Assembly: GCA_963702025.1 (NCBI GenBank)
Contig: OY969699.1
Coordinates: 1,312,001 to 1,376,000, forward strand
DNA from: an uncultured bacterium
GTDB taxonomy: Bacteria > Babelota > Babeliae > Babelales > Vermiphilaceae
Direction of reading: 5' to 3'
DNA: 64,000 nucleotides
A program made the translations under genes and the position numbers. Positions 17,927-54,721 of this stretch are shown in pieces. Each line of letters opens with the position of its first letter. Within the stretch, counting starts at the first letter, position 1. A model generated the notes under the pieces. It was given only the letters and a program-made list of their open reading frames with translations. It made no database searches and was not told the DNA's origin.

Positions 17927-18658
17927 ATGTTTAAAAAAATAGTTTTTCTTATTTGTCTCTCAATGAGCGCATCATCGTATGCCATGACTTTCAGTGTCGT
18001 CGGGCAACCATTAAGCAATGTTGATCCAAAACTAGCTCAGGCAATTGCAGATTTAGGAACAAAAGCACTAAGCAACGTAGCAATTTCATTGGAAGCAACT
18101 GGTGTAAACCTTGGTGCAACACTACAAGAATCCGTTAAAATTTTGCGCAAAGCACTCGAGAATGTAGCTACAACGTTCTCCGAAAATGGTTTTAAATTAG
18201 TACTTGATCCAGAACTCGATCCAAAACTAATTGATAGCATTCAACTCATTTCTAAAGATGGCGCCAAAATAGCACTTAATCTTGATCCCGCTCTTACTAA
18301 AACTATGCAAACGATTGCCGAAAAGGGCTTCCAAATAATAGTTGATCCTGAACTTAATAAGAATCTTAAAACGTTTGCAGACCAGGGAGTAAAAGCACAG
18401 TTCGCTATTGATCCGATCACCCTAAAAACTTTCTGCTTAACCAGTGTTGGTGCAACCCTAGCGGTAGCGGGAATTTTAGTACTCTATCATGAACTTACCA
18501 AAACAGATGCCACGACAACAGAAACAGAATCTGCACAAAAAACCTACTTCCAACACTTTAAAGCATTGTTGCAAAACAAATATGTGATTGGTTCTGCGCA
18601 AGTGCTGGCCGGTCTCTTGTTGATTATCAAAAGCAATGCGTTGATCGCAAGAGGTTAA
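17927..18658 (+). CDS. Hypothetical exported protein with internal ~22-aa repeats and two C-terminal TM helices
   Basis: Signal MFKKIV...SYA; repeats of form G.....DP.L; two hydrophobic helices. Confidence 0.75.
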   Translation: MFKKIVFLICLSMSASSYAMTFSVVGQPLSNVDPKLAQAIADLGTKALSNVAISLEATGVNLGATLQESVKILRKALENVATTFSENGFKLVLDPELDPKLIDSIQLISKDGAKIALNLDPALTKTMQTIAEKGFQIIVDPELNKNLKTFADQGVKAQFAIDPITLKTFCLTSVGATLAVAGILVLYHELTKTDATTTETESAQKTYFQHFKALLQNKYVIGSAQVLAGLLLIIKSNALIARG

Positions 18659-20028
18659 GCCATATTAAATTCTTCGGATTCTTCCTCAACATCATTAAAT
18701 GAATGTTCTTCAGATTCCGATTCTTCTTCATCAGTATCATTTTGCATGAGCGCTTCGATATCTTCTGGTTTTTTTGGCAAGGATTCGCTCAAGCAGACTA
18801 CACCGTCTTTGACAACCCAATAGTTATCTTCGATACGAATACCAATTCCTTCTTGAGGGATATAGATTCCCGGTTCGATGGTGAAAACATCACCTTCTTT
18901 TAAAGGTTCTTTAAGATCACCCACATCATGAACATCAATACCTAAGAAATGGCCAATACCATGGGGAAAATAGTTGCCATAGCCTCGCTCATCCAAGAAT
19001 TTCTTCGCCAAATGATTGAGAGATTTTTCTGGCTGTTCTTTGTTTGATAACCACATGCCCGGCTTTGCAAGATCCGCAATATATTCTTGCGTTGCAAGAA
19101 CCAGATTATAGAGCTCTTTTTGGCGTTTGGTAAAAGTACCTGAAACCGGATACGTTCGGGTTAAATCGGCACAGTAATATTCATATTCGGCGCCAATATC
19201 CACCACTACCAATTGACCATTTTTTAAGACGTCAGCATTTGTTTGATAATGAAGTATGGTGCCATTTTTGCCACCCGCCACGATGCTTGGAAATGATGGG
19301 CGGGCATTCGATCCGGTAAACATATACTCAAGACTTGCCTGCACTTCACATTCAAGAATGCCGTCTTGTATGGCGTGGGCAGCAGCTTCCTGGGCCAACA
19401 TGGTAATCTCTACTGCTTTATACATAGTTTCAATTTCACGCATATCTTTTTTGCGACGCAGTGCGGCTACCAATGGCGCTATATCAATGCAATGACTTTG
19501 AAACCCGGTGATCATCGTATCAAAGCGTGCAAGCATGGAACGTTGCTCAACGTATTCCCATGAATTTTGTGGCGCCAAGGTAAATAACTTCCCATTATCC
19601 TTTATGATCGCACTCAGATCGGCAATGAGATTGGAATAATGCTTTTTATCTGAAAAAGGGTGGAACTGATAGCCCGGCGCCATTTGCCCCAACGATTTGA
19701 TATGTTCAAATCCTAGTTTTTTTGCATTTTCTTGCGTTAAAGGAACCGGCGTGTGCACCCATGCAGATCTATTTGCTCCGTGATCGGGAGTATACAGCGT
19801 TGATTTTCCTTGTAAGTCGATAACAACTACCGCTCCGGGTTCAGTAATGCCGGTTAAATAATAGAATGAACTTTCTTGACGAAATTTAGTGCGATCGTGT
19901 TCAAAAGCACCAAAAAGAACAATTGCCCCTTTTTTCTCAGGGTATTCTTGGCTAATCAGTGCGCTCAGATCTTGTCTGCGCAACTGAGATAATGATGCGG
20001 TTGTTTGCGTTGTTTCATTAATAAACAT
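18655..20028 (-). CDS. pepP: Xaa-Pro aminopeptidase (M24B)
   Basis: FRQESSFYYLTG, VDIGAE..ADLTRT, HGIGHFLGIDVHD, TIEPGIY, GIRIED. Confidence 0.93.
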   Translation of the reverse strand: MFINETTQTTASLSQLRRQDLSALISQEYPEKKGAIVLFGAFEHDRTKFRQESSFYYLTGITEPGAVVVIDLQGKSTLYTPDHGANRSAWVHTPVPLTQENAKKLGFEHIKSLGQMAPGYQFHPFSDKKHYSNLIADLSAIIKDNGKLFTLAPQNSWEYVEQRSMLARFDTMITGFQSHCIDIAPLVAALRRKKDMREIETMYKAVEITMLAQEAAAHAIQDGILECEVQASLEYMFTGSNARPSFPSIVAGGKNGTILHYQTNADVLKNGQLVVVDIGAEYEYYCADLTRTYPVSGTFTKRQKELYNLVLATQEYIADLAKPGMWLSNKEQPEKSLNHLAKKFLDERGYGNYFPHGIGHFLGIDVHDVGDLKEPLKEGDVFTIEPGIYIPQEGIGIRIEDNYWVVKDGVVCLSESLPKKPEDIEALMQNDTDEEESESEEHSFNDVEEESEEFNMA

Positions 20029-20057: not shown

Positions 20058-20198
20058 TCATTCGACACGCTTCGCTACTCCGGATGTGTTCCTAAAACTT
20101 ATTTAAAGCTTAAAACTTACTCGATGTTTTTTACACTTTCTCATGAACTTTTAACCACACATCCTGAATAAAAAATCGAAGATTTTTGTATCGAAGGA
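20058..20198. repeat. Inverted pair of REP-like palindromic units downstream of the GIY-YIG gene
   Basis: 20058-20088 TCATTCGACACGCTTCGCTACTCCGGATGTG and, inverted, 20156-20198 CACACATCCTGAAT-hairpin-GTATCGAAGGA. Confidence 0.8.
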
Positions 20199-20202
20199 TT
20201 TC

Positions 20203-20498
20203 CTACTTTTTAATATTAAAGTTTTTTTTAGATAAAAGTTTTATCTTGTTCCAGTCTTTAGCAAGTAGGGCCGCTTTTTTCTTTCTCGACCATCCTTTGA
20301 TTTGTCTTTCAATAATCAGAGCATCATCTTTTGTTGCAAAATCTTGAACAAAAACTAATTCAACCGGCAACGTGAAGCTGTAGAATATCCACCCTGCCTA
20401 TTGTTATGTTCTGCAAACCTTTGCTCAAGATCCCTCGTTAGTCCAACATAATAAGAATTATCGGCACATTTTAACATATAAACAAAATAACTTTTCAT
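20203..20498 (-). pseudogene. GIY-YIG nuclease (UPF0213/YhbQ-like) with a 1-bp frameshift
   Basis: MKSYFVYMLKCADNSYYVGLTRDLEQRFAEHN..GGYSTASR, then in a shifted frame LPVELVFVQDFATKDDALIIERQIKGWSRKKKAALL...K* (stop 20203-20205). The break is near 20370. Confidence 0.88.
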
Positions 20499-20501
20499 AA
20501 C

Positions 20502-20658
20502 TTTGAATATCCTTCGATACGCTTCGCTACTCAGGATGTGTGATTTCAAATTCTCTTAAATATTAAAATTTTTCATTTGTCATACAAAATAACTATTTCA
20601 AGCTGATAGCATTTAATTTGAATATCCTTCGATACGCTTCGCTACTCAGGATGTGTGA
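20502..20658 (+). repeat. Two identical 42-bp REP-like direct repeats upstream of the GIY-YIG gene
   Basis: TTTGAATATCCTTCGATACGCTTCGCTACTCAGGATGTGTGA at 20502-20543 and 20617-20658. Confidence 0.92.
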
Positions 20659-20661
20659 AGA

Positions 20662-21264
20662 TTAAAATGGTCTACGTTCAGATAATGCCTTATACACGGT
20701 AACTCTATCCATCGATTCTATGGCGGATCCTACCGGAATGCCACGCGCCAGACAAGAAATCTTAACGCCACTTTGCCGTAATTTGCTCGCGATAAACGAT
20801 GCTGTTGCCTCACCTTCTGGCGTCTGATTTGTTGCTAAAATAATTTCTGCAATCTGACTATTTTCAACGCGATGAATCAAGGGGATAATATTTAAATTTT
20901 CCGGGCCGATTCCTTCCAAGGGGCAAATTGCCCCACCAAGCACATGATAGACACCGGTATAACCGCCGGTTTTTTCTATCGCAATAAGCTCTTGCCATGT
21001 CTCTACCACGCAGACAAGCGATTGATCACGGCGCGTATTGGAGCACAACGAACAGGCGCGATCTTTTTCGCGCCATGAAAAGCAGGTGCCGCATTGGGTT
21101 ATATTTTGTTTTACTTCTTTAAGAGTTGCACAAAATTGATCAACCTTGTGTTCCTCAAGGTGCAAAAAATAGCTGGCGACTCGATAAATATTTTTTGAAG
21201 CCAGATAGGGCACTTGCTGCAAGGTTTTAAGAAGTCTGGTGAGCGAAGGGGTTTCTGGCAACAT
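20662..21264 (-). CDS. recR: Recombination mediator RecR
   Basis: C4 zinc finger (CGTC..CSLC), CVVE, YHVLGG, EIILATN.TPEGEATA, LARGIPVG. Confidence 0.96.
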   Translation of the reverse strand: MLPETPSLTRLLKTLQQVPYLASKNIYRVASYFLHLEEHKVDQFCATLKEVKQNITQCGTCFSWREKDRACSLCSNTRRDQSLVCVVETWQELIAIEKTGGYTGVYHVLGGAICPLEGIGPENLNIIPLIHRVENSQIAEIILATNQTPEGEATASFIASKLRQSGVKISCLARGIPVGSAIESMDRVTVYKALSERRPF

Positions 21265-23405: not shown

Positions 23406-23572
23406 CCCTTCGTGACCCGTCTTCCGACTTCGCTAAAGCTACGTCGGGCAGGTCGCCAAGGCGGAGTTTATCCTGAGCTCACCGAAGGGCCGGGCACGCG
23501 CACAACGACCCGTTCGTGCTGAGCCCGTCGAAGCATCGTGGTGAGTGATTGCGAAGCAATTGTATCGAACCA
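23406..23572. repeat. Composite cluster of REP-like palindromes
   Basis: CCGACTTCGCTAAAGCTACGTCGG hairpin (23424-47), TCCTGAG..CCGAAGGG (23471-89), TGCTGAG..TCGAAGCA (23510-35), TGGTGAGT..GTATCGAACCA (23536-72). Confidence 0.8.
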
Positions 23573-30609: not shown

Positions 30610-30700
30610 TGGTTCGATACGATTGCTACGCAATCACTCACCACGAGCGGCACACCTAGGCCCGCTCGCCCTGAGTAGCAGTTTACTGCGTATCGAAGGG
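30610..30700. repeat. Inverted pair of REP-like units (REPIN-like) between ffh and rpsP
   Basis: TGGTTCGATAC-GATTGCTACGCAATC-ACTCACCACGAGCGG (30610-50) and CCGCTCGCCCTGAGT-hairpin-GTATCGAAGGG (30662-700). Confidence 0.88.
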
Positions 30701-38910: not shown

Positions 38911-39021
38911 CCGTTCGTGGTGAGTGCGAACGCAGTGAGCGTATCGAACCATAATTGGAAAAATTCAAATCATAAGCACCCTTCGATACGCCGCTCTTCG
39001 AGCGGCACTCAGGGCGAACGG
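38911..39021. repeat. Inverted pair of REP-like units
   Basis: CCGTTCGTGGTGAGT..GTATCGAACCA (38911-51) and CCCTTCGATAC-GCCGCTCTTCGAGCGGC-ACTCAGGGCGAACGG (38979-39021). Confidence 0.88.
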
Positions 39022-42188: not shown

Positions 42189-42235
42189 AATTACTAACAG
42201 CATTTAAGACTGATATAACCAAATATGGAGATTAT

Positions 42236-43597
42236 ATGTATACCAAGAAACACTTAAGCACACTTTTTTTTGCCGCTGCTTTAACAGGCAATGCATCACA
42301 TGCAATGCATCTTTATCAGCAAGAACGAGTCGTTGAAAAACAACAAGAAGAAGCAACCAAGCAATTGATCATCCTGCTTTCCTTCACTTATCCTACAAAT
42401 ACTCAAGAAAAAGATAATTTGATAACCAAAATTAAAGAATTATTAGTAAAAGGTGCAAATCCCGATGGAGATCAAGATGGCAATAGACCGTTAGTGTGGG
42501 CCGCTCGAAGCTGCGGCCGTTATGTTGATCCGGTACGCACTCTCCTTGAGCATGGCGCCAATCCTAATGTGCAAGTGCAAGATACTAGGGGCGAAACCGC
42601 ATTAATAGGTGCTGCCCGCTCTGGCCATCTAGATACGGCGCGACTCCTACTTGAGCATGGCGCTGAAGCTAATATGCAAGTTAATGATGGCAATACTGCA
42701 TTACTAGTTGCTACTGATTATCACAATAAAAATATCGTGCGCCTTCTTCTTGCTCATCATGCAAAGCCAAATATTAAAAATAATAATGGAGATACCGCAC
42801 TTCTTAAAGCAGTCAAAAAAGAAAAACCCGCAATTGACATTATTCGTTTACTTCTTGAAGACGGGCATGCCGATCCTAACATTCAAGATACAGATGGCAA
42901 TAGCCCATTGCATTTGGCCACCCCTCATGAAAATATTGTTCGTCTTCTTTTTGAGCATAAGGCAAAACCTAATCTAAAAAATAATGCTGGCTACACGGCC
43001 TTAATTAATTTTATTAAAAATAAAAATCAAATTCCCTCCATGCCGGTACAGATCATTCTTGAGAATGAAGCTAATCCAAATATAAAAGACACAGATGGCG
43101 CTACTGCATTGCACCATGCCGCACGGTATGGGCATGCTCCTATAGCCAAGCTACTTCTTGAATACGGCGCTGATCCACTGATAGCAGATAATCATGGCGT
43201 AACAGCCTTATTATTGGCCGCTCAGCATGGACAAAGGGAAATTGCTTCGCAACTCATTAAGTATGCAATCACAAAGAGAATAGCTGGACTCAAGGTAATC
43301 CGCGCAGCAAATGATTCCTATTTAAGCTTACTACCTGCTGATCTTTTTGAATTTGCAACAAAAAATTTTCTAAGCCAAGCGTCCGATAACACCACTAACG
43401 ATGTTGGCAATACCCCTTTACACGCTGCTGCTCAAAATGGCCACGATGATATTGTAAAGCTTCTTCTTAAGAATTGCGCGGATAAAGAATGCTTAAACAA
43501 TGCGGGCAAAACTGCGTTGGCTCTAGCACAAGAAAAAAACTATCAAGCTGTTATTGATTTGCTGGAAGAAAAACCAGCAGAGGGCAAGCAAAAATAA
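42236..43597 (+). CDS. Secreted ankyrin-repeat protein (array gene 1)
   Basis: Signal ..SHA-MHLYQQ; multiple G.T(A/P)LH.AA..G ankyrin repeats. Confidence 0.93.
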   Translation: MYTKKHLSTLFFAAALTGNASHAMHLYQQERVVEKQQEEATKQLIILLSFTYPTNTQEKDNLITKIKELLVKGANPDGDQDGNRPLVWAARSCGRYVDPVRTLLEHGANPNVQVQDTRGETALIGAARSGHLDTARLLLEHGAEANMQVNDGNTALLVATDYHNKNIVRLLLAHHAKPNIKNNNGDTALLKAVKKEKPAIDIIRLLLEDGHADPNIQDTDGNSPLHLATPHENIVRLLFEHKAKPNLKNNAGYTALINFIKNKNQIPSMPVQIILENEANPNIKDTDGATALHHAARYGHAPIAKLLLEYGADPLIADNHGVTALLLAAQHGQREIASQLIKYAITKRIAGLKVIRAANDSYLSLLPADLFEFATKNFLSQASDNTTNDVGNTPLHAAAQNGHDDIVKLLLKNCADKECLNNAGKTALALAQEKNYQAVIDLLEEKPAEGKQK

Positions 43598-43615
43598 ATT
43601 TTAAATGGAGAAACC

Positions 43616-45094
43616 ATGAATATAAAAAAACAATATGTCACACTTTTTATTACCGCTGCTTTAATGGGTAGTTCATCTTACGCAATGCATCTTTATCAAC
43701 AAACGAAAGTAATTGAAAAACAACAAGAAGAAGCAACCAAGCAATTGATCATCCTGCTTTCCTTCACTTATCCTACAAATACTCAAGAAAAAGATAATTT
43801 GATAACCAAAATTAAAGAATTATTAGTAAAAGGTGCAAATCCCGATGGAGATCAAGATGGCAATAGACCGTTAGTGTGGGCCGCTCGAAGCTGCGGCCGT
43901 TATGTTGATCCGGTACGCACTCTCCTTGAGCATGGCGCCAATCCTAATATCCAAGATTGGTTTGGCAATACCGCATTAATAGACGCCGCACAGACTGACC
44001 AAGTTGCCTCTGTAAGCCTCCTGCTTGAGCGTGGCGCTAAATCTGATATCCAAGATCATTGGGGCTCAACCGCATTAATATGTGCTGCCAATCGGGGGCA
44101 TTCTGATACGACGCGCGTTCTGCTTGAGCATGGCGCTAATACTGATATCCAAGCTAATGATGGCAAAACCGCATTACTAGTTGCTACTCAATTCCACAAT
44201 AAAAATATCATGCGCCTCCTTCTTGCTCATCAGGCCAAGCCAAATATTAAAAACCATCATGGAGATACCGCACTTCTTACCGCAATAAAAAAAGAAGAAC
44301 CAGCAATTGAGATTATTCGTTTACTTCTTGAAGACGGGCATGCCGATCCTAACATTCAAGATAAAGATGGCAATAGCCCATTGCATTTGGCCACCCATAA
44401 TGAAAATATTGTAAGTCTTCTTTTTGAGCATGAAGCGAAGCCTAATCTAAAAAATAACGCCGGAAATACAGCCTTGATTAATTTTATTAAAAACCAGAAT
44501 CAAATTCCCTCCATGCCGGTACAGATCATTCTTGAGAATGAAGCTAATCCAAATATAAAAGACACAGATGGCGCTACTGCATTGCACTACGCCGCACGGT
44601 ATGGGCATGCTCCCATTGCAAAACTACTTCTTGAATATGGCGCTGATCCGCTGATAGCAGATAATCATGGCGTAACAGCTTTATTATTGGCCGCACAGCA
44701 TGGACAAAAGGAAATTGCTTCGCAACTCATTAAGTATGCTATCACCTTGAAAATAGCTGGACTCAAGTCAATCCGGGCAGAAAAAGACTGCTATTTAAAC
44801 TTATTACCCGGTGACCTTTTTCAATTTACTTTAAAATCTTTTCTGATCCCAAGTTGCCTCAGTTTCCTCAATGGCGCCAATGATGTTGGCAACACGCCAT
44901 TACATGTTGCCGCTCAAAATAACGATTTTGATATGATAAAGCTCCTTCTTGAGCATGGTGCAGATAAAACATACTTAAACAATGAGGGCAAAACTGCATT
45001 GGATATAGCCAAAGAAAAAAGCTATAAAACTATTATTGATTTGCTGCAAGATAAACCGGCGGAGAATCCAAGCGAGCAAGATAATAAAAAGTAA
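43616..45094 (+). CDS. Secreted ankyrin-repeat protein (array gene 2)
   Basis: Paralog of gene 1 with one extra repeat. Confidence 0.93.
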   Translation: MNIKKQYVTLFITAALMGSSSYAMHLYQQTKVIEKQQEEATKQLIILLSFTYPTNTQEKDNLITKIKELLVKGANPDGDQDGNRPLVWAARSCGRYVDPVRTLLEHGANPNIQDWFGNTALIDAAQTDQVASVSLLLERGAKSDIQDHWGSTALICAANRGHSDTTRVLLEHGANTDIQANDGKTALLVATQFHNKNIMRLLLAHQAKPNIKNHHGDTALLTAIKKEEPAIEIIRLLLEDGHADPNIQDKDGNSPLHLATHNENIVSLLFEHEAKPNLKNNAGNTALINFIKNQNQIPSMPVQIILENEANPNIKDTDGATALHYAARYGHAPIAKLLLEYGADPLIADNHGVTALLLAAQHGQKEIASQLIKYAITLKIAGLKSIRAEKDCYLNLLPGDLFQFTLKSFLIPSCLSFLNGANDVGNTPLHVAAQNNDFDMIKLLLEHGADKTYLNNEGKTALDIAKEKSYKTIIDLLQDKPAENPSEQDNKK

Positions 45095-45112
45095 AGTTTA
45101 GATGGAGAAATT

Positions 45113-46480
45113 ATGAATACCAGAAAACACTTAATAACACTGTTTATTGCCGCTTCTTTAACCGCCAGTTCATCTCGCGCAATGCATCTTTACCAGCAAG
45201 AGCGAGTAGTTGAAAAACAAAAAGAAGAAGCAACCAAGCAATTAATCACATTGATTTCCAACATCTATCCTACAAATACTCAAGAAAAAGATAATTTAAT
45301 AACCAAAATTAAAGAATTATTGTTAAAAGGTGCAAATCCCGATGGATATAAAGATAGTCATAGACCGTTAGTATGGGCTGCTAGAAACAGCCGCTATGCT
45401 GATCCGGTGCGCATTCTTCTTGAGTATGGGGCTAACCCCAATGTACAAGATAATAGCGGCACAACCGCATTAATAGGCGCTGCCTGCGGTGGCCATGTTG
45501 ATACGGCACGCATTCTCTTTGAGCATTGCGTGGATCCTGATATCCAAGATTATCGTGGCAATACCGCTTTAATATTTGCAACCCATTTTCACAATAAAAA
45601 TATCGTGCGCCTCCTTCTTACTTATCATACTCATTGGGCCGATCCCGATATTAAAGATAATCATGGAGATACGGCACTTATTGTAGCAAGTAGAGAAGAA
45701 AAACCGATCATCGAAATTATTCGTTTACTTCTTGAAAAGAAAGGCCACGCCAATCCTAACATTCAAGATAAAGATGGCAACAGCCCATTGCTCTTGGCCA
45801 CCCATAATGAAAATATTATAAGTCTTCTTTTTGAGCACGGGGCAAAACCTAATTTAAAAAATAAGGCCGGCAACACCGCATTAATTAATTTTGTTAAAAG
45901 CTCGCATAATATACCCTCCATGCCAGTAGAGCTCCTTCTTAAAAATGAAGCTAATCCAAATATAAAAAATAATGATGGTGCCACTGCATTGCACTATGCT
46001 GCACGGTACGGGCATGCTCCTATAGCCAAACTCCTTCTTGAATATGGTGCTGCCCCGGTAATGGCCGATAATCATGGCGTAACAGCCTTATTATTGGCCG
46101 CTCAGCATGGACAAAGGGAAATTGCTTCGGAACTTATTAAGCATGCAATCACAAAGAAAATAGATGGACTCAAAGCACTTCGTGAGGTGAAAAACTGCTA
46201 TTTAAGCTTATTGCCGAGTGACCTTATTGTATTTACCGTAAAACTGCAAGCCGCAGATTTCATCAATGGCGCCAATGATGTTGGCAATACCCCTTTACAC
46301 GCTGCTGCTCAAAATGGCCATGCTGAGATTGTACGGCTTCTTCTTGAAAATAGTGCGGATAAAGCATTCTTAAACAATGAGGGCAAAACTGCGTTGGCTC
46401 TAGCGCAAGAAAATAAAAATCAAAATATTATTGATCTGCTGCACGATAAATCAGCAGAGAACCAAAACGAGCAAAAGTAA
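45113..46480 (+). CDS. Secreted ankyrin-repeat protein (array gene 3)
   Basis: Paralog of genes 1 and 2. Confidence 0.93.
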   Translation: MNTRKHLITLFIAASLTASSSRAMHLYQQERVVEKQKEEATKQLITLISNIYPTNTQEKDNLITKIKELLLKGANPDGYKDSHRPLVWAARNSRYADPVRILLEYGANPNVQDNSGTTALIGAACGGHVDTARILFEHCVDPDIQDYRGNTALIFATHFHNKNIVRLLLTYHTHWADPDIKDNHGDTALIVASREEKPIIEIIRLLLEKKGHANPNIQDKDGNSPLLLATHNENIISLLFEHGAKPNLKNKAGNTALINFVKSSHNIPSMPVELLLKNEANPNIKNNDGATALHYAARYGHAPIAKLLLEYGAAPVMADNHGVTALLLAAQHGQREIASELIKHAITKKIDGLKALREVKNCYLSLLPSDLIVFTVKLQAADFINGANDVGNTPLHAAAQNGHAEIVRLLLENSADKAFLNNEGKTALALAQENKNQNIIDLLHDKSAENQNEQK

Positions 46481-46498
46481 ATTCTAAATGGAGAAATC

Positions 46499-47476
46499 AT
46501 GGATATCAAAAAACTAAATTTTCTTTTTGCACCAGTCATACTCATCAGCACCGGTGCAAGCACAATGGAAAAAGCTTGGATACCTACTTATTTAAACAAA
46601 CAAGAAGCGCTCAAAATTGAAAAAGAAAAAAAAGCTGCGGCAGAAGAAGCTGCTAAAAAAGCTGCGCATGAAACCGCAATAGCTGCTGAGAAAGCAAGGG
46701 AAGCTGCAACTTATGAATTGATTATGCTTATCAAAAAAACTAGAAGTCAATTTGATTATAACAAGTATACCCCCGAAGGGCAAAAAGCTATTATTGAAGC
46801 AAAAGAAGAAGAAGCTCTTGCAGAAAAAAGAGTAGCGGAACTACTTCAAGCTGGCGCAGATCCAAATGTAAAAACTTCTGTTAATCGTGGGTTTAAAAAG
46901 TATAGCGCTAAGACCACACTTCTTATTTTGGCTCTTGAGAAGGGATTTTTTGGAATTGCCAAATTACTTATCAAAGCCGGATCGGATGTAAACTTTACAG
47001 ATAGTCATAACACCATATTGCAAACAGCAATAAAAATTCAAATGGATAATAGATCTATTGATACTGTTCGTATGCTTCTTGAATATGGAGCCAATCCAGA
47101 TTTAACGAGCGTAAGCGATACTAGAACCCCATTGGAGCTTGCTCTTAATTGTTATGATTTTTGTTATCAAAAATTTACAGAAACTTTACAAATTCTATTA
47201 GATCATGGCGCCAATCCAAATATGATTACGAACAGTGAAGGCTATACATTATTACATATGGCAGCTCTAAAAAATAATCCAGAAGCAGTTTCCCTATTAC
47301 TTCAATTCGGCGCCGATCCGCTCCTTCTCAATAAGGAAGGAAAATCGGCAGGCATGATTGCACAAGAAAAATTAGAATCCGAACAAACAGATGAAGAAAA
47401 AGCGCGGTATAAAGAAATAATTGAAATGCTCAACAACCCCCGAGCTATTAAATGCGGAGGTCAAAAGCTGATCTAA
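46499..47476 (+). CDS. Secreted ankyrin-repeat protein with E/A/K-rich helix (array gene 4)
   Basis: Signal ..GAST-MEK; EKKAAAEEAAKKAA; LLEYGANPD ankyrin repeats. Confidence 0.9.
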   Translation: MDIKKLNFLFAPVILISTGASTMEKAWIPTYLNKQEALKIEKEKKAAAEEAAKKAAHETAIAAEKAREAATYELIMLIKKTRSQFDYNKYTPEGQKAIIEAKEEEALAEKRVAELLQAGADPNVKTSVNRGFKKYSAKTTLLILALEKGFFGIAKLLIKAGSDVNFTDSHNTILQTAIKIQMDNRSIDTVRMLLEYGANPDLTSVSDTRTPLELALNCYDFCYQKFTETLQILLDHGANPNMITNSEGYTLLHMAALKNNPEAVSLLLQFGADPLLLNKEGKSAGMIAQEKLESEQTDEEKARYKEIIEMLNNPRAIKCGGQKLI

Positions 47477-47505
47477 ATGATAAGAATAATTTTGATGGAG
47501 AAAAT

Positions 47506-48879
47506 ATGAACACCAAAAAACATTTATGCATGCTTTTTATTACCGCTGCTTTAATGGGTAGTTCATCTCAGGCTATGCATCTTTATCAGCAAGAGCGAGT
47601 GGTTGAAAAAGAAGAAGCAAAAAAAGCTACTGATCAACTAATGAAACTACTAAGGGAAACTGATTTTAAAAGAATATTAGATAATGATGCAGAAATAAAC
47701 CATCTTACAAAAAAAATAAATAATTTAATATCAAAAGGTGCAGATCCTGATCTCAAGTATGAGAATTGTATGGTTGCATTCAGTTTGGCTGCGGCAACAG
47801 GCAATATTAAAATTGTGAGATTCTTTCTTAAAAATATAAATTCTGATCTAAAAGGTAAGCCTTTATATTTAGCTGCGCGCAACGGCCATACTGATATTGC
47901 AAAACTTCTGCTTGAAAACGAGGCTAATCCCCATAGAGCCTATGAGTATGAGAGAAAAACCCCATTGATGCAAGCTTCAGAAAAAGGACATCTTGGTATT
48001 GTAAGTCTATTGCTTGAAAAAGGCGCCTATATAAATGCAAAAGATTATAATGACTGTACCGCATTAAGCTTTGCTGCAGAGCATAATCATACTGCCATCG
48101 TAAAACTGCTCCTTGAAAAGGGTGCCAACGCCAATACACAAGAATATACTCTTTATAGAGATACACCTCTTATCAAAGCGGCTGCTCGCGGCTATTTAGA
48201 TATCGTTGATCTTTTACTAAAAGCAGGAGCAAATCCGGATACACAAAATAAAGATCGAGAGACTGCGTTAACATGGGCGACCCGTCGAAAGAATATAAAG
48301 ATTATGAATCTTCTTCTTGAAAAAAATGCTAACCCTAATCTACAACAGCATGAGCTCAAAACTGCATTAATGATTGCAGCCGAACAAGGCGATACTGGTG
48401 CTGTAGAAATACTTCTTAAAAAAAATGCCGATCCTTATATCAAATCTAAATATGGTAAAAACGCATTATTTTTTGCCGCTGAGCAGGGACACTGTGACAT
48501 TGCTCACCTTTTGCTTCAATCTCTTGTTCAGTTGCAAAAATTGACAACGACTTCAATAGAATCGGCTAGCAAAGAAAAAAATTCTTATTTGTGTTTGCTG
48601 CCCGGTGATCTTGTTAAACTGGCAACAAAATACACGATAACTGCTTATCGAATAAACATGATTCATGCTGTTAGTGATTATGGCAGTACGCCATTACATG
48701 GTGCAACTTTCTACGGGCATGCTGATTTTGTACGACTTCTTCTTGAGCATGGTGCTGATAAAACCATTAAAAATAATTTTGGCAAAACTGCGTTGGATAT
48801 AGCTAAGGAAAAAAGCAATCAAGCTATTATTGATCTGCTACACGATAAACCGGCAGAGAGCCAAAGCGAGCAAAACTAA
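47506..48879 (+). CDS. Secreted ankyrin-repeat protein (array gene 5)
   Basis: GGAG SD before ATG 47506; A-MHLYQQ leader; divergent ankyrin core. Confidence 0.92.
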   Translation: MNTKKHLCMLFITAALMGSSSQAMHLYQQERVVEKEEAKKATDQLMKLLRETDFKRILDNDAEINHLTKKINNLISKGADPDLKYENCMVAFSLAAATGNIKIVRFFLKNINSDLKGKPLYLAARNGHTDIAKLLLENEANPHRAYEYERKTPLMQASEKGHLGIVSLLLEKGAYINAKDYNDCTALSFAAEHNHTAIVKLLLEKGANANTQEYTLYRDTPLIKAAARGYLDIVDLLLKAGANPDTQNKDRETALTWATRRKNIKIMNLLLEKNANPNLQQHELKTALMIAAEQGDTGAVEILLKKNADPYIKSKYGKNALFFAAEQGHCDIAHLLLQSLVQLQKLTTTSIESASKEKNSYLCLLPGDLVKLATKYTITAYRINMIHAVSDYGSTPLHGATFYGHADFVRLLLEHGADKTIKNNFGKTALDIAKEKSNQAIIDLLHDKPAESQSEQN

Positions 48880-48898
48880 ATTTTAAATGGAGAACACT

Positions 48899-50218
48899 AT
48901 GAATACCAAAAAAATAATATCCAATATTTGCGTGCCGCTCTTGTTTTCAGGCTCCTTTTTAGGCGCCATGGAAAAAGTAACGCCCACTTATCCACAAGAA
49001 CTTCAGCGCACTCAATTCGTTTTTGAAAACTTACCTCTGGATATTCGGCGCTATTTGCTTCCATTCATTGCCAGCGGCGATATTCCTACCGCAGCACGAA
49101 GCATCCTTGCCCTTGCAGCAACCAATAAAGCATTGCGCGCATTTCTCAATAATCCTGATAATATGCTGATTGTGCTCCAATCTTTACCGTATCCTGCCCA
49201 TGCAATTGATTTAGCAATTGGAGAAGGTCGCAGATCATATGGATCTACCAATCGGCCAAAACTAGCAAAGATGCCGGTTATAAAGAATAAAAAAATAAGA
49301 GACTGGATTGAAAAACAACAAAATGAACTCGTAATGGGGGAAGAACTTGTAAATGCTGCCACAAACCATAATCTAGAAACAGTAGAGCTGCTTCTTAAAA
49401 ATCCAAAAATAGATTTAAATTATCAATGGGGCTTTGGATTTACTGCTCTCATGGAAGCAGTACGATCGAGACCAAAAGGGCGCATTGACAATAGCATCGC
49501 AATCATGAAACTACTTCTTGATGCGCAAGCAAATCCTGATTTGCAAAATTTTAGCTCGGGAAATACTGCGCTTATACAAGCCGCAAATAGGTGGTGGCGT
49601 CCAGAAAGAACTGTTCTCTTGCTTGAAAAAGGAGCAGATATACATCTTTTAAATAAAGATAATGAAACTGCATACGATTGCCTTTATTCCCAATGTCAGA
49701 AAAGTCCATATCGCAAAAGCGATAATGAGGTTAATGATATTCATCAATTGTTATTTTTGTTAGAACCACTAAAATCGGCTGCCGTAAATGAAAGAGGTCA
49801 AGCAGCCTTATGTTGGGCGATCGAAAACGGCCATATTAAAACAGCATCCCAGTTGATTGAACGTGTTGTTCGGCCCGCACAATATACATTTAATTTACGC
49901 ACGGAAGACAAAAAATCCTATTTTCATTTAATACAAGATGTAGAAGTTCTTAATTTAACCGCAAAATATCTGCTAGGTTATTATGTTAATTGTACATATG
50001 TTAATTGTAAAGATGTTACTGGCAATACCCCATTACATATCGCCGCTCAAAATGGCCATGCTGATTTTGTACGGCTTCTTCTTGAGTCTGGTGCGGATAA
50101 AACCATTAAAAATAATTTCGGCAAAACAGCATTAGATATAGCAAAAGAAAAAAGCTATCAAGCTATTATTGATCTGCTGCAAAGTAAATCGGCAGAGAGC
50201 CAAAGCGAGCAAAAGTAA
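48899..50218 (+). CDS. Secreted F-box-like plus ankyrin protein (array gene 6)
   Basis: Signal ..FLGA-MEK; FENLPLDIRRYLLPFI..LAATNK; ankyrin repeats; C-terminus shared with genes 5 and 7. Confidence 0.9.
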   Translation: MNTKKIISNICVPLLFSGSFLGAMEKVTPTYPQELQRTQFVFENLPLDIRRYLLPFIASGDIPTAARSILALAATNKALRAFLNNPDNMLIVLQSLPYPAHAIDLAIGEGRRSYGSTNRPKLAKMPVIKNKKIRDWIEKQQNELVMGEELVNAATNHNLETVELLLKNPKIDLNYQWGFGFTALMEAVRSRPKGRIDNSIAIMKLLLDAQANPDLQNFSSGNTALIQAANRWWRPERTVLLLEKGADIHLLNKDNETAYDCLYSQCQKSPYRKSDNEVNDIHQLLFLLEPLKSAAVNERGQAALCWAIENGHIKTASQLIERVVRPAQYTFNLRTEDKKSYFHLIQDVEVLNLTAKYLLGYYVNCTYVNCKDVTGNTPLHIAAQNGHADFVRLLLESGADKTIKNNFGKTALDIAKEKSYQAIIDLLQSKSAESQSEQK

Positions 50219-50236
50219 ATTTTAAATGGAGAAACC

Positions 50237-51403
50237 ATGAATATCAAAAAACGCTTAATAACACTTTTTATTACCGCCGCGCTAACTGGCTATTCATCAC
50301 AGGCCATGCATCTTTATCAGCAAAAGCGAGTAGATGAGAAGCAACAAAAGGAAGCAACTGAGCAATTAATCACGCTGCTTTCCTCTTATCCTATAAATAT
50401 TCAAGAAAAAGATAATTTAACAAGCAAAGTTAAAGAATTGTTAGCAAAAGGTGCAAATCCTGATGGCGATAATGATAGTAAAAGACCGTTAGTATGGGCT
50501 GCTCGATACAGCCGCCATGTTGATCCGGCGCGCATTCTCCTTGAGCATAACGCTAACCCTAATGTAAAAGGTTATAACGGCGTAACTGCGTTAATTAATG
50601 CTACTCAGCATCACCAGGTTGACACAGTGCGCCTCCTTTTGGAACACAACGCCAACCCTGATATCCAAGATAATGATGGCGATGCCGCATTAATAGTTGC
50701 TGCCTGCTGTGGCTATGGTGATACGGAGCGGGTCCTCCTTGAGCATGGCGCTAAACCTGATATCCAAGATAATCGTGGCAATACCCCCTTACTAGTCGCT
50801 ACTAGATATCACCATAAAGATACAGCGCGCCTCCTTCTTGCTCATCATGCAAAGCCAAATATTAAAAATAATGATGGAGATACGGCACTTCTTACAGCAA
50901 TTAAAAAAGACAAACCAAGCATTGACATTATTCGTTTACTTCTTGAATATGGCGCCGATCCAATGATGACAAATAATCATGGCGAAACAGCCTTATTTCG
51001 AGCCGCACAGTATGGAAAAACAGAAGTCGCTTCGCAACTCATTCAGTCAGTTATCGATCAGAAAATAACCGGACTCAAATACATCCGCGCAGAAAAAGAC
51101 TGCTATTTAAGCTTATTACCTGGTGACCTTTTTCAATTTACCCTAAAATCTTTTCTTATCCCAAGTTGCTTCCTCAATTTCCTCAATGGTGCCAATGATG
51201 TTGGCAACACCCCATTGCATGTTGCCGCAGAATATTACAACGCTGCTGATTTTGTACGGCTTCTTCTTGAACATGGTGCGGATAAAACCATTAAAAATAA
51301 TTTCGGCAAAACAGCATTAGATATAGCAAAAGAAAAAAGCTATCAAGCTATTATTGATCTTCTGCAAGATAAACCGGCAGAGAACAAAAGCGAGCAAAAG
51401 TAA
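50237..51403 (+). CDS. Secreted ankyrin-repeat protein (array gene 7)
   Basis: Paralog of genes 1-3 with fewer repeats. Confidence 0.92.
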   Translation: MNIKKRLITLFITAALTGYSSQAMHLYQQKRVDEKQQKEATEQLITLLSSYPINIQEKDNLTSKVKELLAKGANPDGDNDSKRPLVWAARYSRHVDPARILLEHNANPNVKGYNGVTALINATQHHQVDTVRLLLEHNANPDIQDNDGDAALIVAACCGYGDTERVLLEHGAKPDIQDNRGNTPLLVATRYHHKDTARLLLAHHAKPNIKNNDGDTALLTAIKKDKPSIDIIRLLLEYGADPMMTNNHGETALFRAAQYGKTEVASQLIQSVIDQKITGLKYIRAEKDCYLSLLPGDLFQFTLKSFLIPSCFLNFLNGANDVGNTPLHVAAEYYNAADFVRLLLEHGADKTIKNNFGKTALDIAKEKSYQAIIDLLQDKPAENKSEQK

Positions 51404-51422
51404 ATTTTAAATGGAGAAAACC

Positions 51423-52757
51423 ATGAATATCAAAAAACACTATATCACACTTTTTATTACCGCTGCTTTAATGGGTAGTTCATCTCAGGCTATGCATCTT
51501 TATCAACAAACAAAAGTCGTTGAAAAGCAACGAAAAACTGCACAGCGACAATTCTATTATTTCTCTTTATTACCAAACGATTTGCAAGCGGGCACATTGC
51601 GCAATTTTGTTGTAAATACCATAATTAACGAATCAGAGTCGCTGGACGAGGCAATCACAAAAATTATAGAAAAAGCGGAAGATCCGTTGTTTCACACTAT
51701 GTTAGCCCAAGATAGTAAGTTATTACAAACAGTCGGAAAAGGCGGCTGGTTGATCAATCAGGATATCGACTACATTCTTAAATATTATTTTAGGTACGAT
51801 GCAGGTAACTTGAAAAAGTTCATCAACAAAAAGATTCCTGCAATTCCTGAAATTATAGAAAAAATTAATATATTAATCGAACAACCTAAAAAGGATGGTT
51901 CTGTTTTTAAGGAAGTAGTTTTCAATAAAATAAAAGAGTTGGCCAACTGTCATGCACATAAAACTATACTCAATTCATATGAGATGGCCTGCTACATCAT
52001 TGGCTCTATAGCAGATCCGAAATGGATTGAAGGAAATGTAAGAGTTGCGGCAAAATTACAGACTACGGGAGCAGCAAGTTATATTTTAAGAAAAGCAACA
52101 GTAAAATATATTTTTAATAACATTGATTATTTTCTCTACGATAAAAGTAATTTCTTCATTGAGGTTTTAGTTAATAATGATTTTCCCCAAGAGACCGATT
52201 TAACTAAACAAGAAATATATAACTTCATCCTGGAAAAAGCTATTTGTCATGATTCAGAGGATCTCGTAACATTAGCCTTGAAAAAAGGTGCCATTTCAAA
52301 TGGCTATCGAGAGTATAAAATTTACAGGGATGGTTATAAAATATATGCAAAAGAACCGTATTTACTAAGAGCTACTCGAGAAGGAAATCCTACTATAGTA
52401 AATAGCTTGATCGCGGCCAAAGCACTACCGAATTTACCCGACCAAGATGGCACTACTGCGTTGCATAAAGCGTGCGAAAAAGAAAATCTACCCATAGTAA
52501 CTCAGTTACTTGCTGCAGGCGCGAATCCGAATATTCAAAACAAGTACGGAGAAACTGCATTGCATAAAGCATCGCAAAAGGGAAATCTAGATATTATAAC
52601 AAAGCTCGTTACTGCAGGAGCAGATATTATTCTTCGAGACAAAACGGGTCGAACCGCCTATTCCTATGTCTGTCAGTCTCAAAGCCACCATAAGCAGGCA
52701 ATCCTCGATCTTTTTGATTCTATTGCAGATGAACCAATCACGCTTGAAAAGTCATAA
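51423..52757 (+). CDS. Secreted F-box-like plus ankyrin protein (array gene 8)
   Basis: A-MHLYQQ leader, YFSLLPNDLQ, helical domain, 3-4 C-terminal ankyrin repeats. Confidence 0.88.
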   Translation: MNIKKHYITLFITAALMGSSSQAMHLYQQTKVVEKQRKTAQRQFYYFSLLPNDLQAGTLRNFVVNTIINESESLDEAITKIIEKAEDPLFHTMLAQDSKLLQTVGKGGWLINQDIDYILKYYFRYDAGNLKKFINKKIPAIPEIIEKINILIEQPKKDGSVFKEVVFNKIKELANCHAHKTILNSYEMACYIIGSIADPKWIEGNVRVAAKLQTTGAASYILRKATVKYIFNNIDYFLYDKSNFFIEVLVNNDFPQETDLTKQEIYNFILEKAICHDSEDLVTLALKKGAISNGYREYKIYRDGYKIYAKEPYLLRATREGNPTIVNSLIAAKALPNLPDQDGTTALHKACEKENLPIVTQLLAAGANPNIQNKYGETALHKASQKGNLDIITKLVTAGADIILRDKTGRTAYSYVCQSQSHHKQAILDLFDSIADEPITLEKS

Positions 52758-52929
52758 GAATCAAAAAAAATTAAGGGCTTGATATTTCTCTGCTTCTTAA
52801 TTAACTATCAGCGGTACTATATTTTAGGCTTTCCAAGATTATTTTAAAAGTTACACTAAAAAGCAGAAAGAAACGATATTTAAAGTTAACCAAAAAGCAG
52901 AGAGAACATTTAATGGAAAGCGCATTATC

Positions 52930-53889
52930 ATGAATTTAACGGTAAAAGTTTCTTTCTCAATTTTCATATTCTGTTTTTTTCAAATTGAAGGAAAGCAAAA
53001 GCAATTTCAACCACTATCCCTCAAAGAAATAGTTACTATTGCCGTTCTAAAAACTCTAAAAACGAAGCCTGAGATCAAAAAACTTCCCTTACCAACTGAG
53101 CTTAAAGAACATCTGAGCCATCAGCAGGCCTTACAAAAAATATTAGTAGAACATGAAGAGCGCCGGAACCCGGTGCAAAAGGCATTGTGGTCAATTGCAA
53201 GAAATGGCAGACACGATTTCCTGATCCCCCTGCTCATTGCTAAAGGCGCCGACATATATGAACTGAAATCAAACGACTTTGATGGCTTTACGACAGATTC
53301 GGTTTTATCATGCGCGGTAGAAAATTATCACCCAAATGTTGTAAAAAAACTACTCGAATGCGGGGTTTTTGTAGATTGGCAAAATAATTGGAGAAATACT
53401 GCACTGATAGACGCTTCTAAAAAAGGCTTTGAAGCTATGGTTAGAACTTTGCTCAACAACGGAGCTGATACAAACAAAAAAGGATATGAAGGGTATACTG
53501 CCTTAATGTGGGTTACTAAATTAGGCAAAACTGATATCATGGCTCCTGATATCGCGACTGATATCGCGCGGCTCCTACTCGAACATGGTACCGATCCCAA
53601 TATCCAAAATATCGATGGCTGGACTTCATTAATGTTTGCAGCTCATGAAAATAATATTGATATTATGCAACTTCTTCTTGAGCATGGCGCGGATCAAACT
53701 ATCCAAAATTACGGGACTGAGCATAGGGATCTTATTGGACCACCAACCACAGCATTAACTATTGCAGAAAATCGAGGTCATAATAAAATTGCTGATTTAT
53801 TAAAAAATCCCACCACCACGAAAAAACCAATATCAAATGCCTTAAATGACGGCGAAGCAAACCTGATTCAAAATGAAGTTTTAATTTAG
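52930..53889 (+). CDS. Secreted SOCS-box-like plus ankyrin protein
   Basis: PLSLKEIVTIAV...IKKLPLPTELKEHL, then about 6 ankyrin repeats. Confidence 0.88.
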   Translation: MNLTVKVSFSIFIFCFFQIEGKQKQFQPLSLKEIVTIAVLKTLKTKPEIKKLPLPTELKEHLSHQQALQKILVEHEERRNPVQKALWSIARNGRHDFLIPLLIAKGADIYELKSNDFDGFTTDSVLSCAVENYHPNVVKKLLECGVFVDWQNNWRNTALIDASKKGFEAMVRTLLNNGADTNKKGYEGYTALMWVTKLGKTDIMAPDIATDIARLLLEHGTDPNIQNIDGWTSLMFAAHENNIDIMQLLLEHGADQTIQNYGTEHRDLIGPPTTALTIAENRGHNKIADLLKNPTTTKKPISNALNDGEANLIQNEVLI

Positions 53890-53899
53890 GAGAAAGCCT

Positions 53900-54721
53900 A
53901 TGCAAATTTTATATTTACTATTATTTTTCTCATTCTCAGCATTTTGTATGAACAGCGATGATGAATTAACTGATAAAGAAAGGGAAAAGCAGAAAAGATT
54001 AATTGAAAAATGTACTTTGGAACTTGTTAATACCATTAATGAGCGCTTCTTAAAAAAGATGGATCTTAATACACCAATGCAAAATTACATTGGTCAAACC
54101 CCTCTTCATAGAGCATGCATATTTGATGAATCAGGTGAATTAGTGCGTAAGTTACTTTCTGCGGGAGCTCAAGTAAATGTGCGTGATGATGAAGGACAAA
54201 CACCATTAAACTTTGTATGCAAATATGCTAGACCTAGTTCAATAACTAATATAAAACTACTGCTGGAACATGCAGCCGATCCCAATATTCCAGGAAATAC
54301 TGGGTGGTATCCAATAGCAGAAATAGTCGGAAAACCTCTAAAATTCTGGAACGATTTTCTAGTACGTAAGTCCGGAGCAAAAGCATGGATTAAAATGTTG
54401 CTTGCACATGGTGCAAATCCTTTTATTAAGGGTGAAAATAATGAAACACCTTTACAAATGATTACTCATCTAATTGGACAAGATACGTCTCAATTAATTA
54501 CCCACATTTACAATCATAAAAAACTTGCTTATCTATTACTGCTTCGGGGTAAAGATCCACGTGATTTAAACTATTCACTCTTTAACAAGTTGCCATCGGA
54601 TATAATCAAGCTCATTCTTGATCTGATGTTCCCCGGTTTTCCATTACCCCCTTCTCAATTAAATCATTCACAATTTCTTGCGTTCATGAAAGAGGATGCA
54701 AAAAAAGTGCCGTTTTTTTAG
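53900..54721 (+). CDS. Secreted ankyrin protein with C-terminal F-box-like motif
   Basis: GQTPLHRAC, GQTPLNFVC repeats; SLFNKLPSDIIKLILDLM. Confidence 0.85.
   Translation: MQILYLLLFFSFSAFCMNSDDELTDKEREKQKRLIEKCTLELVNTINERFLKKMDLNTPMQNYIGQTPLHRACIFDESGELVRKLLSAGAQVNVRDDEGQTPLNFVCKYARPSSITNIKLLLEHAADPNIPGNTGWYPIAEIVGKPLKFWNDFLVRKSGAKAWIKMLLAHGANPFIKGENNETPLQMITHLIGQDTSQLITHIYNHKKLAYLLLLRGKDPRDLNYSLFNKLPSDIIKLILDLMFPGFPLPPSQLNHSQFLAFMKEDAKKVPFF

Follow-up and report, generated by a model that had tools for sequence, protein, structure and literature searches.

The stretch of DNA analyzed here (the window, 64,000 nucleotides, G000:C1:1312001-1376000) belongs to a genome that is represented by one contig of 1.6 Mb and is 95%-complete. 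Named close homologues and the ankyrin-like repeats indicate that the host is likely a Babeliales (Dependentiae) bacterium. On the minus strand, recR (20662..21264, called from TIGR00615 above the cut-off) is followed by a 636-bp gap holding a small GIY-YIG gene, and then by pepP, an Xaa-Pro aminopeptidase-like gene for an M24/AMP_N peptidase (18655..20028), such that the two host genes form the left and right borders, respectively, of the insertion. The GIY-YIG gene, of a UPF0213-like branch, runs from an ATG at 20498 to a stop codon at 20203 (minus strand, 296 nt), a length of 98 codons plus the stop minus one base, and is split over two frames by a one-base frameshift near 20368. Both pieces match PF01541 (E 2.8e-10 and 0.003), which is the only domain of the 98-codon protein and leaves it well within the size range of the published Ssn nucleases (<150 aa). 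A sequence-only reading of this DNA had placed a GIY-YIG gene of about 98 codons between pepP and recR, and the profile matches to all three genes bear this out.

The window gene keeps the GIY-YIG signature residues Y7, Y17, G19, R27 and H31, as well as the conserved Glu; 11/11 aligned homologues show no change at the signature Tyr, Arg, His and Glu, and the predicted structure of an intact paralogue shows the GIY-YIG fold. Selection on the gene is purifying, with dN/dS of 0.015-0.105 in 10 of 12 pairs, the other two being saturated. The frame is open in a related strain, represented by contigs of runs X2, X3 and X7 from three studies, which have one more base after 20368. Runs X1, X11 and X12 match the genome exactly but leave base 20368 uncovered, so that a real mutation and an assembly error are indistinguishable at this position.

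The gene lies between palindromic units. Upstream, two 42-mers (20502-20543 and 20617-20658) are identical, and contain the unit nearest the gene, with its ACACA tag outward (20510..20543, minus strand), and a second unit that adjoins the recR stop codon (20625..20658, minus strand); the AT-rich, 81-bp spacer between them (20544..20624) has no clear copy elsewhere in the genome. Downstream, a unit with its tag outward (20155..20198, plus strand), 97.7% identical to three dispersed gene-less copies, closes the bracket, and is followed near pepP by a degenerate unit (20058..20091, minus strand), which is likely older; a lone unit is also present at the recR-pepP junction of one relative (G002). 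Thus, tags point outward in the two units nearest the gene, and the inverted downstream pair, tags facing, is indeed present together with the two identical 42-bp upstream units, as had been described, although both downstream units are degenerate.

The 3' arm of the nearest upstream unit supplies an AAGGA that ends 11 nt before the ATG, in line with the earlier proposal that the repeat provides the ribosome-binding site of the gene. However, among 18 starts measured in cassettes, the distance from unit to ATG is mostly 19-42 nt, and many cassette arms have no AGGA, several ending in ACCA or AGCA instead. The proposal can therefore stand at the window locus, but not as a feature of the family. 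A scan for promoters and terminators gave results at chance level.

Two other repetitive regions were seen in the window, namely an array of paralogous genes made of 99-108 bp repeats resembling ankyrin repeats (42200-54400) and four or five 264-267 bp repeats that probably lie inside one coding sequence (58000-59500).

The Repeat Unit and Its Copies

Each unit consists of a tag of 5-7 nt, a 4-bp stem, GA, one pair, a variable inner hairpin, GA, and the returning stem arm, with the GA/GA internal loop being invariant. The stems vary in step (TCCT/AGGA, TGGT/ACCA, CCCT/AGGG, TCCC/GGGA, GTTC/GAAC and others): among 45 distinct arm pairs, chosen by tag and spacing alone and with pairing not a criterion, 13 are fully complementary, compared to a mean of 2.0 and a maximum of 8 in shuffles, and at looser spacing the count becomes noisy (52-69% paired). 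Folding energy gives no signal, as single units are no better than shuffles in 5/5 tested (z -1.9 to +0.9), and it is therefore covariation that supports the stem. Tandem GA pairs stabilize DNA hairpins. A search of Rfam returned one chance match to the unit (E 3.5).

The tag is ACACA in the four units at the gene and CCGYTCR in the gene-less copies elsewhere in the window, which comprise two nested or tandem units of the CCGTTCG-tag subtype (23510..23572, plus strand), a dimer with facing tags and TGGT and CCCT stems (30610..30700), and a dimer with outward tags and a 27-bp spacer, one of five similar in the genome (38911..39021). Hence, the family does recur at 23.5, 30.6 and 38.9 kb without the gene, as first described, but under a different tag. 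As a side observation, the five TGGT/CCCT dimers (window 38911-39021; G000:C1:559580, 593826, 845073 and 1051338) share the 27-bp spacer, and in at least three of them the shared sequence continues past the tags for about 40 bp into the flanks, so that they may represent another composite element.

The pattern taken from the sequence-only reading has 117 matches in the 1.6-Mb genome, compared to 8, 6 and 5 in three order-5 Markov genomes, and a broader unit definition gives 159 compared to 3 and 2. Clean copies of the ACACA subtype number 18 in the window genome, 21 in G006 and 14 in G001; this subtype is absent from the 58 other family genomes searched, and stands beside only 1/103 cassettes, that of the window. 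Viral contigs gave 153 pattern matches, none of them confirmed. The unit may resemble the cyanobacterial SDR repeats, a likeness on which a literature search gave nothing. Membership in the CGTC-3 family, a candidate identity, is unsupported by the accessible text of Di Nocera et al. 2013 (PMC3733652).

Homologues, Repeat Load and the Ssn Family

Relatives carry three kinds of small GIY-YIG gene, named here from a reading of their sequences: UPF0213-like (the window gene), SsnA-like, and 80-residue Slx1-like. The UPF0213-like gene is patchy (45/151 genomes) and often multicopy, at nonconserved sites, with a fixed orientation relative to its flanking units. An alignment of 11 bracketed proteins gave at least 602 matching stretches in genome contigs, of which 80 were kept (5 of these duplicate loci already in the set), from Alpha-, Beta- and Gammaproteobacteria, Thermodesulfobacteriota, Nitrospirota, Chloroflexota and others. 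Among the 77 homologues with full flanks, a tag-outward unit lies upstream of 58, downstream of 61 and on both sides of 47, compared to 1, 2 and 0 of 71, respectively, for control windows 500 bp farther out. In a looser test, units lie on both sides of 21/27 order-level and 49/71 distant loci (in the wrong orientation on both sides at 0/27 and 9/71), compared to 0/13 housekeeping and other outgroup rows, 0/9 SsnA-like rows and 0/50 Slx1-like rows. The enrichment of the repeat in the flanks of homologues, which had been put forward as a check, is thus observed.

Repeat abundance also tracks the nuclease across 150 genomes of the order, a set in which kin are not independent and broken genes are missed at the threshold used: 35/44 genomes with the gene have at least 5 repeats, compared to 17/106 without it, and 10/44 compared to 1/106 have at least 50. 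In a within-family permutation, the observed 35 compares to a maximum of 30 in 20000 trials. The repeat load does not follow Y1 transposases, since Y1_Tnp is unassociated with it (22/60 vs 30/90), no unit was found at 20 Y1 loci, and Y1_Tnp (PF01797) has 0 matches in the 95%-complete window genome; DUF559 was likewise sought in this genome, and none was found. Exceptions occur in both directions, as 13/106 gene-negative genomes have at least 10 repeats and 9/44 gene-positive genomes have fewer than 5, and in G006, with its 21 ACACA-tag units, no ACACA-bracketed gene was found.

Two further groups of loci were recorded alongside these. The Slx1-like genes (G000:C1:1567658-1567873, 1568458-1568595 and 1019370-1019573, with 52 rows among L003-L127) have a different hairpin family, mainly upstream and often near the ends of tRNA genes, copies of which nest inside units of the UPF0213-branch cassette family. 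A sister cassette at G000:C1:490356-490736 (L002), together with L074, L075 and L076, has an altered unit with a CCTC stem and a modified internal loop, and the proteins of these cassettes form one cluster in the tree, which hints at covariation between enzyme and repeat.

Membership in the Ssn family was assessed by its BLAST criterion (E<1e-10 over 75% of the query), with the N. gonorrhoeae orthologue as a stand-in for SsnA and the database size set to 500000. The window protein matches the Neisseria orthologue at E 8e-6 (32%) and falls short of this threshold, which is passed by 0/28 order-level and 9/75 distant proteins, compared to 10/10 Ssn-like rows. The YhbQ/YazA profile beats the Ssn profile for 28/28 order-level proteins (88 compared to 55 bits for the window protein), and the nearest solved structures are the UPF0213 proteins 1ZG2 and 1YWL. 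The SRM repeat of Ssn loci was found within 500 bp on both sides at 0/103 loci, with a pattern that picks up the Neisseria, Azospirillum and Shinella loci, and has 2 matches in the whole window genome, none at the locus. Two quick trees place the window branch in a group separate from Ssn, but a union of the two groups survives the AU tests (p-AU 0.705 and 0.925, the free tree search being suboptimal). On a Planktothrix plasmid (L234, ~590-700 and 985-1100), an Ssn-clade gene has GTCA-tagged units with the GA/GA stem on its flanks, along with short repeats in tandem, and this locus is a possible link between the two repeat families. Because the trees cannot reject the union, 9/75 distant proteins pass the threshold, and one hybrid unit exists, the window system and Ssn are probably related. 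At the same time, since the window protein is closer to YhbQ/YazA than to Ssn, fails the BLAST threshold and has no SRM, the system looks like a parallel variant beside Ssn.

Signs of Mobility and the IS982-Type Ends

Among the recR loci of 29 relatives, pepP is next in 25, and the GIY-YIG gene is present at 0/25 of these syntenic junctions, three of which hold gene-less units; the comparison of this junction in relatives, suggested as a check, thus returned a site empty of the gene in every case. In G001, a paralogous cassette sits on the other side of recR, and only 2 homologous flank pairs were found among 30 cassettes. In the related strain, about 6/485 bases differ between the outer tags, compared to 108/1257 in pepP and recR (8-9%; binomial 2e-12, from short contigs of three studies that are broken at repeats), which suggests that the cassette was recently exchanged between lineages at the same site.

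Units insert in intergenic DNA, in one another, and in frame within conserved genes. In-frame insertions occur at 7 sites in 6 genes, which we read from their translations as argS, mnmE (twice), transketolase, holB, pgeF and uvrC. Repeat-derived inserts of 25-70 residues, reminiscent of the Rickettsia palindromic elements, are present in core proteins at G000:C1:931906-933651, 308768-310297, 561043-563046, 666101-666955, 268769-269602 and 384641-386122. The insertions are lineage-specific, being absent from most of 3-7 congeners, and at the uvrC, mnmE and transketolase sites other congeners carry different insertions. Their junctions are untidy, with no duplication evident, but at the mere ~80% identity of these congeners, precise ends and short duplications may escape notice. 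A search for empty paralogous sites within the window genome gave a few untidy pairs with no clean ends.

An intact cassette at C1:1201.8 kb aligns with eleven gene-less dimers as its internally deleted forms, 9 of which have BLAST matches to its interior. Outer inverted ends surround 14/16 TGGT/TGGT elements, with target duplications of 6-7 bp that are exact in 4/14 and have at most one mismatch in 9/14 (random 0.00075). In relatives, these same ends are also found next to PF13612 transposase genes, paired ~1 kb apart in 9/15 loci; in the window genome, PF13612 has no match above the cut-off. Because IS982-type ends with target duplications surround the deletion derivatives, a DDE transposase likely moved them as an IS982-type MITE (G000:C1:140115-140380 and 13 similar sites). 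This subfamily, with elements of 190-275 bp, accounts for 21/159 units, and the window cassette has no outer-end motif at its locus. No deletion derivative of the window cassette was found in the window genome or in the ACACA-type dimers of two congeners, where none of 12 stretches contained clear gene remnants. The idea that gene-less copies are nonautonomous derivatives therefore holds for some dimers, which derive from a paralogous cassette and lie inside IS982-type ends, whereas no such derivative of the window cassette was found. Separately, one arm of this MITE is interrupted at G000:C1:852199-853500 by a transposase gene that has short inverted ends of its own, with an apparent 8-bp duplication.

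Interpretation and Comparison with Known Systems

On sequence grounds, the window element is a mobile cassette, in which hairpin units with outward tags enclose a GIY-YIG gene of the UPF0213 branch. We consider it reasonably probable that the cognate nuclease cuts the repeat and also drives most of its spread. By analogy to SsnA, the enzyme would bind the unit as single-stranded DNA, as Ssn nucleases do theirs, and would likely recognize and cut it just 5' of the tag, in which case tag-outward pairs would mark both ends of the cassette. Since a GIY-YIG enzyme hydrolyzes DNA and forms no covalent intermediate, completing the insertion would fall to host repair or recombination, in keeping with the untidy junctions and the reuse of the same sites. 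One cassette would have been taken up between IS982-type ends, which would have dispersed a small share of the gene-less copies. The proposal that a GIY-YIG enzyme takes the role of a RAYT here is thus backed by the flank enrichment, the empty site, the repeat load that tracks the gene and the absence of Y1_Tnp, and it is the mobilization by the nuclease that we infer. A wider version, which we offer more tentatively and think somewhat less likely to hold than to fail, is that an autonomous element of ~300-500 bp with a hydrolytic 95-residue GIY-YIG enzyme spreads itself and its hairpins by nick-and-repair or homing-like replacement, as a third REP-type route beside HUH and DDE enzymes, that would be used in parallel by the Ssn, UPF0213 and 80-residue Slx1-like branches, each with its own hairpin.

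The most serious competitor, which we nevertheless regard as rather unlikely, is that the nuclease cuts or binds the repeat without spreading it, in an SsnA-like role of restricting or processing repeat-bearing single-stranded DNA or of keeping cruciforms in check, with IS982-type transposases or repeat recombination moving the units and the cassette. The outer ends and duplications of the TGGT/TGGT elements (14/16, with 4/14 exact and 9/14 at one mismatch) and the pairing of the same ends around PF13612 genes (9/15) would be expected from such transposases, and repeat-rich genomes that keep a repeat-resolving enzyme would give the same correlation of gene and repeat load. SsnA itself lowers the integration of NTS-bearing DNA in N. 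meningitidis, and transposition is not demonstrated in the available text of Chenal et al. 2025 (PMC11893778). However, only 21/159 units sit in IS982-type elements, the window cassette has no outer ends, PF13612 stays below the cut-off in its genome, and a gene with a protective role only would have no need of brackets whose orientation stays fixed while the site keeps changing. Spread by the cognate nuclease must in turn accommodate the gene-negative genomes with many repeats (13/106), the gene-positive genomes with few (9/44), the 21 orphan ACACA-tag units of G006, the confinement of the only clear deletion derivatives to IS982-type ends, and a window gene that is broken in the assembly.

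That the window protein is no more than an outlying member of the published Ssn family (cd10448), with an SRM that has drifted, is improbable: its size, its tag-outward geometry, the AU tests, the 9/75 distant homologues at E<1e-10 and the Planktothrix gene with GTCA-tagged GA/GA units would all be compatible with this, but the missing SRM (0/103), the weak match of the window protein (E 8e-6, 32%), the 0/28 against 10/10 rows that pass the threshold, and the preference of 28/28 proteins for the YhbQ/YazA profile, with 1ZG2 and 1YWL as best solved relatives, point away from it. That same profile closeness would suit a housekeeping repair nuclease of the YhbQ/YazA type, around which repeats had simply accumulated in AT-rich DNA, and repeats do reuse insertion hot spots; yet none of 13 housekeeping and outgroup rows has units, and the gene is patchy, often multicopy and fixed in orientation to its units at nonconserved sites. 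This last reading, which we hold to be very improbable indeed, is already largely refuted by the bracketing, the outgroup rows and the sites of the cassettes.

How REP-type repeats spread without a RAYT is an open question in the accessible text of Di Nocera et al. 2013 (PMC3733652), with a hypothesis in that of Chenal et al. 2025 (PMC11893778). The UPF0213 branch adds a second pairing of enzyme and hairpin, distinct in sequence from the first, for which genomes show direct signs of mobility, and its culturable hosts (Sphingobium, Sphingomonas and Herbaspirillum) make the question of spread testable. If the enzyme cuts as SsnA does, it would widen the small set of site-specific single-strand DNA nucleases to a structurally different target. 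In addition, core proteins of these bacteria, whose genomes are small, gain peptides from the repeats. The open-access literature search found no paper on a UPF0213-branch cassette or its repeat. The arrangement of nuclease and hairpins is itself of a kind published in 2025, and what is new here are the membership tests, the order-wide association checked against Y1 transposases, the recognition of IS982-type ends as a confounder, the units inserted in frame, and the indication that a cassette was recently exchanged.

With regard to known systems, YhbQ (E. coli), YazA (B. subtilis), 1ZG2 and 1YWL of UPF0213 are the nearest named relatives in sequence and fold, but YhbQ/YazA genes are tightly packed among housekeeping genes, without repeats, and the window branch lacks such a fixed, repeat-free neighborhood. 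RAYT/TnpA-REP genes with their REPs and REPINs are likewise flanked by inverted tagged palindromes and accompanied by many gene-less monomers and dimers; in contrast to them, the enzyme here is a GIY-YIG hydrolase and not an HUH tyrosine transposase (PF01797 not being found in the window genome), and several cassette types per genome occur at shifting sites. The CGTC-tagged REPs described in the accessible text of Di Nocera et al. 2013 (PMC3733652) are also tagged palindromes in dimers, with heterodimers common and some copies inside repair genes, and are said there to have no dedicated transposase. They have stems of 8-9 bp, loops of 4-5 nt and CCA tails, whereas the units here have a GA/GA internal loop and a variable arm. 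MITEs derived from IS982 are known, such as MITECca01 (PMC9769881), and one subfamily here shares their IS982-type ends and 6-7 bp duplications; unlike them, its cargo is a decayed nuclease cassette, and the window cassette is free of such ends.

The closest parallel is Ssn, a cd10448 clade flanked by SRM repeats, for which, in the available text of Chenal et al. 2025 (PMC11893778), site-specific single-strand cleavage is shown for four enzymes and an analogy to IS200/IS605 and REP-associated transposases is proposed. Both the nuclease-plus-hairpin layout and the RAYT analogy were thus already in print, and the idea of the sequence-only reading is not new. In the accessible part of a 2026 Minerva preprint, SsnA serves only as a benchmark. 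The window system is like Ssn in its single-domain GIY-YIG gene of ~95 residues, its tag-outward hairpins that are also dispersed, in the same geometry as at the Neisseria, Azospirillum and Shinella loci, and its wide, patchy distribution. It differs from Ssn in the repeat, which has a GTTCR or ACACA tag, a 4-bp stem, the GA/GA loop and a variable arm rather than an SRM, and, compared to the available Ssn text, in its genomic signs of mobility, namely empty sites, deletion derivatives, in-frame insertions and recent exchange.
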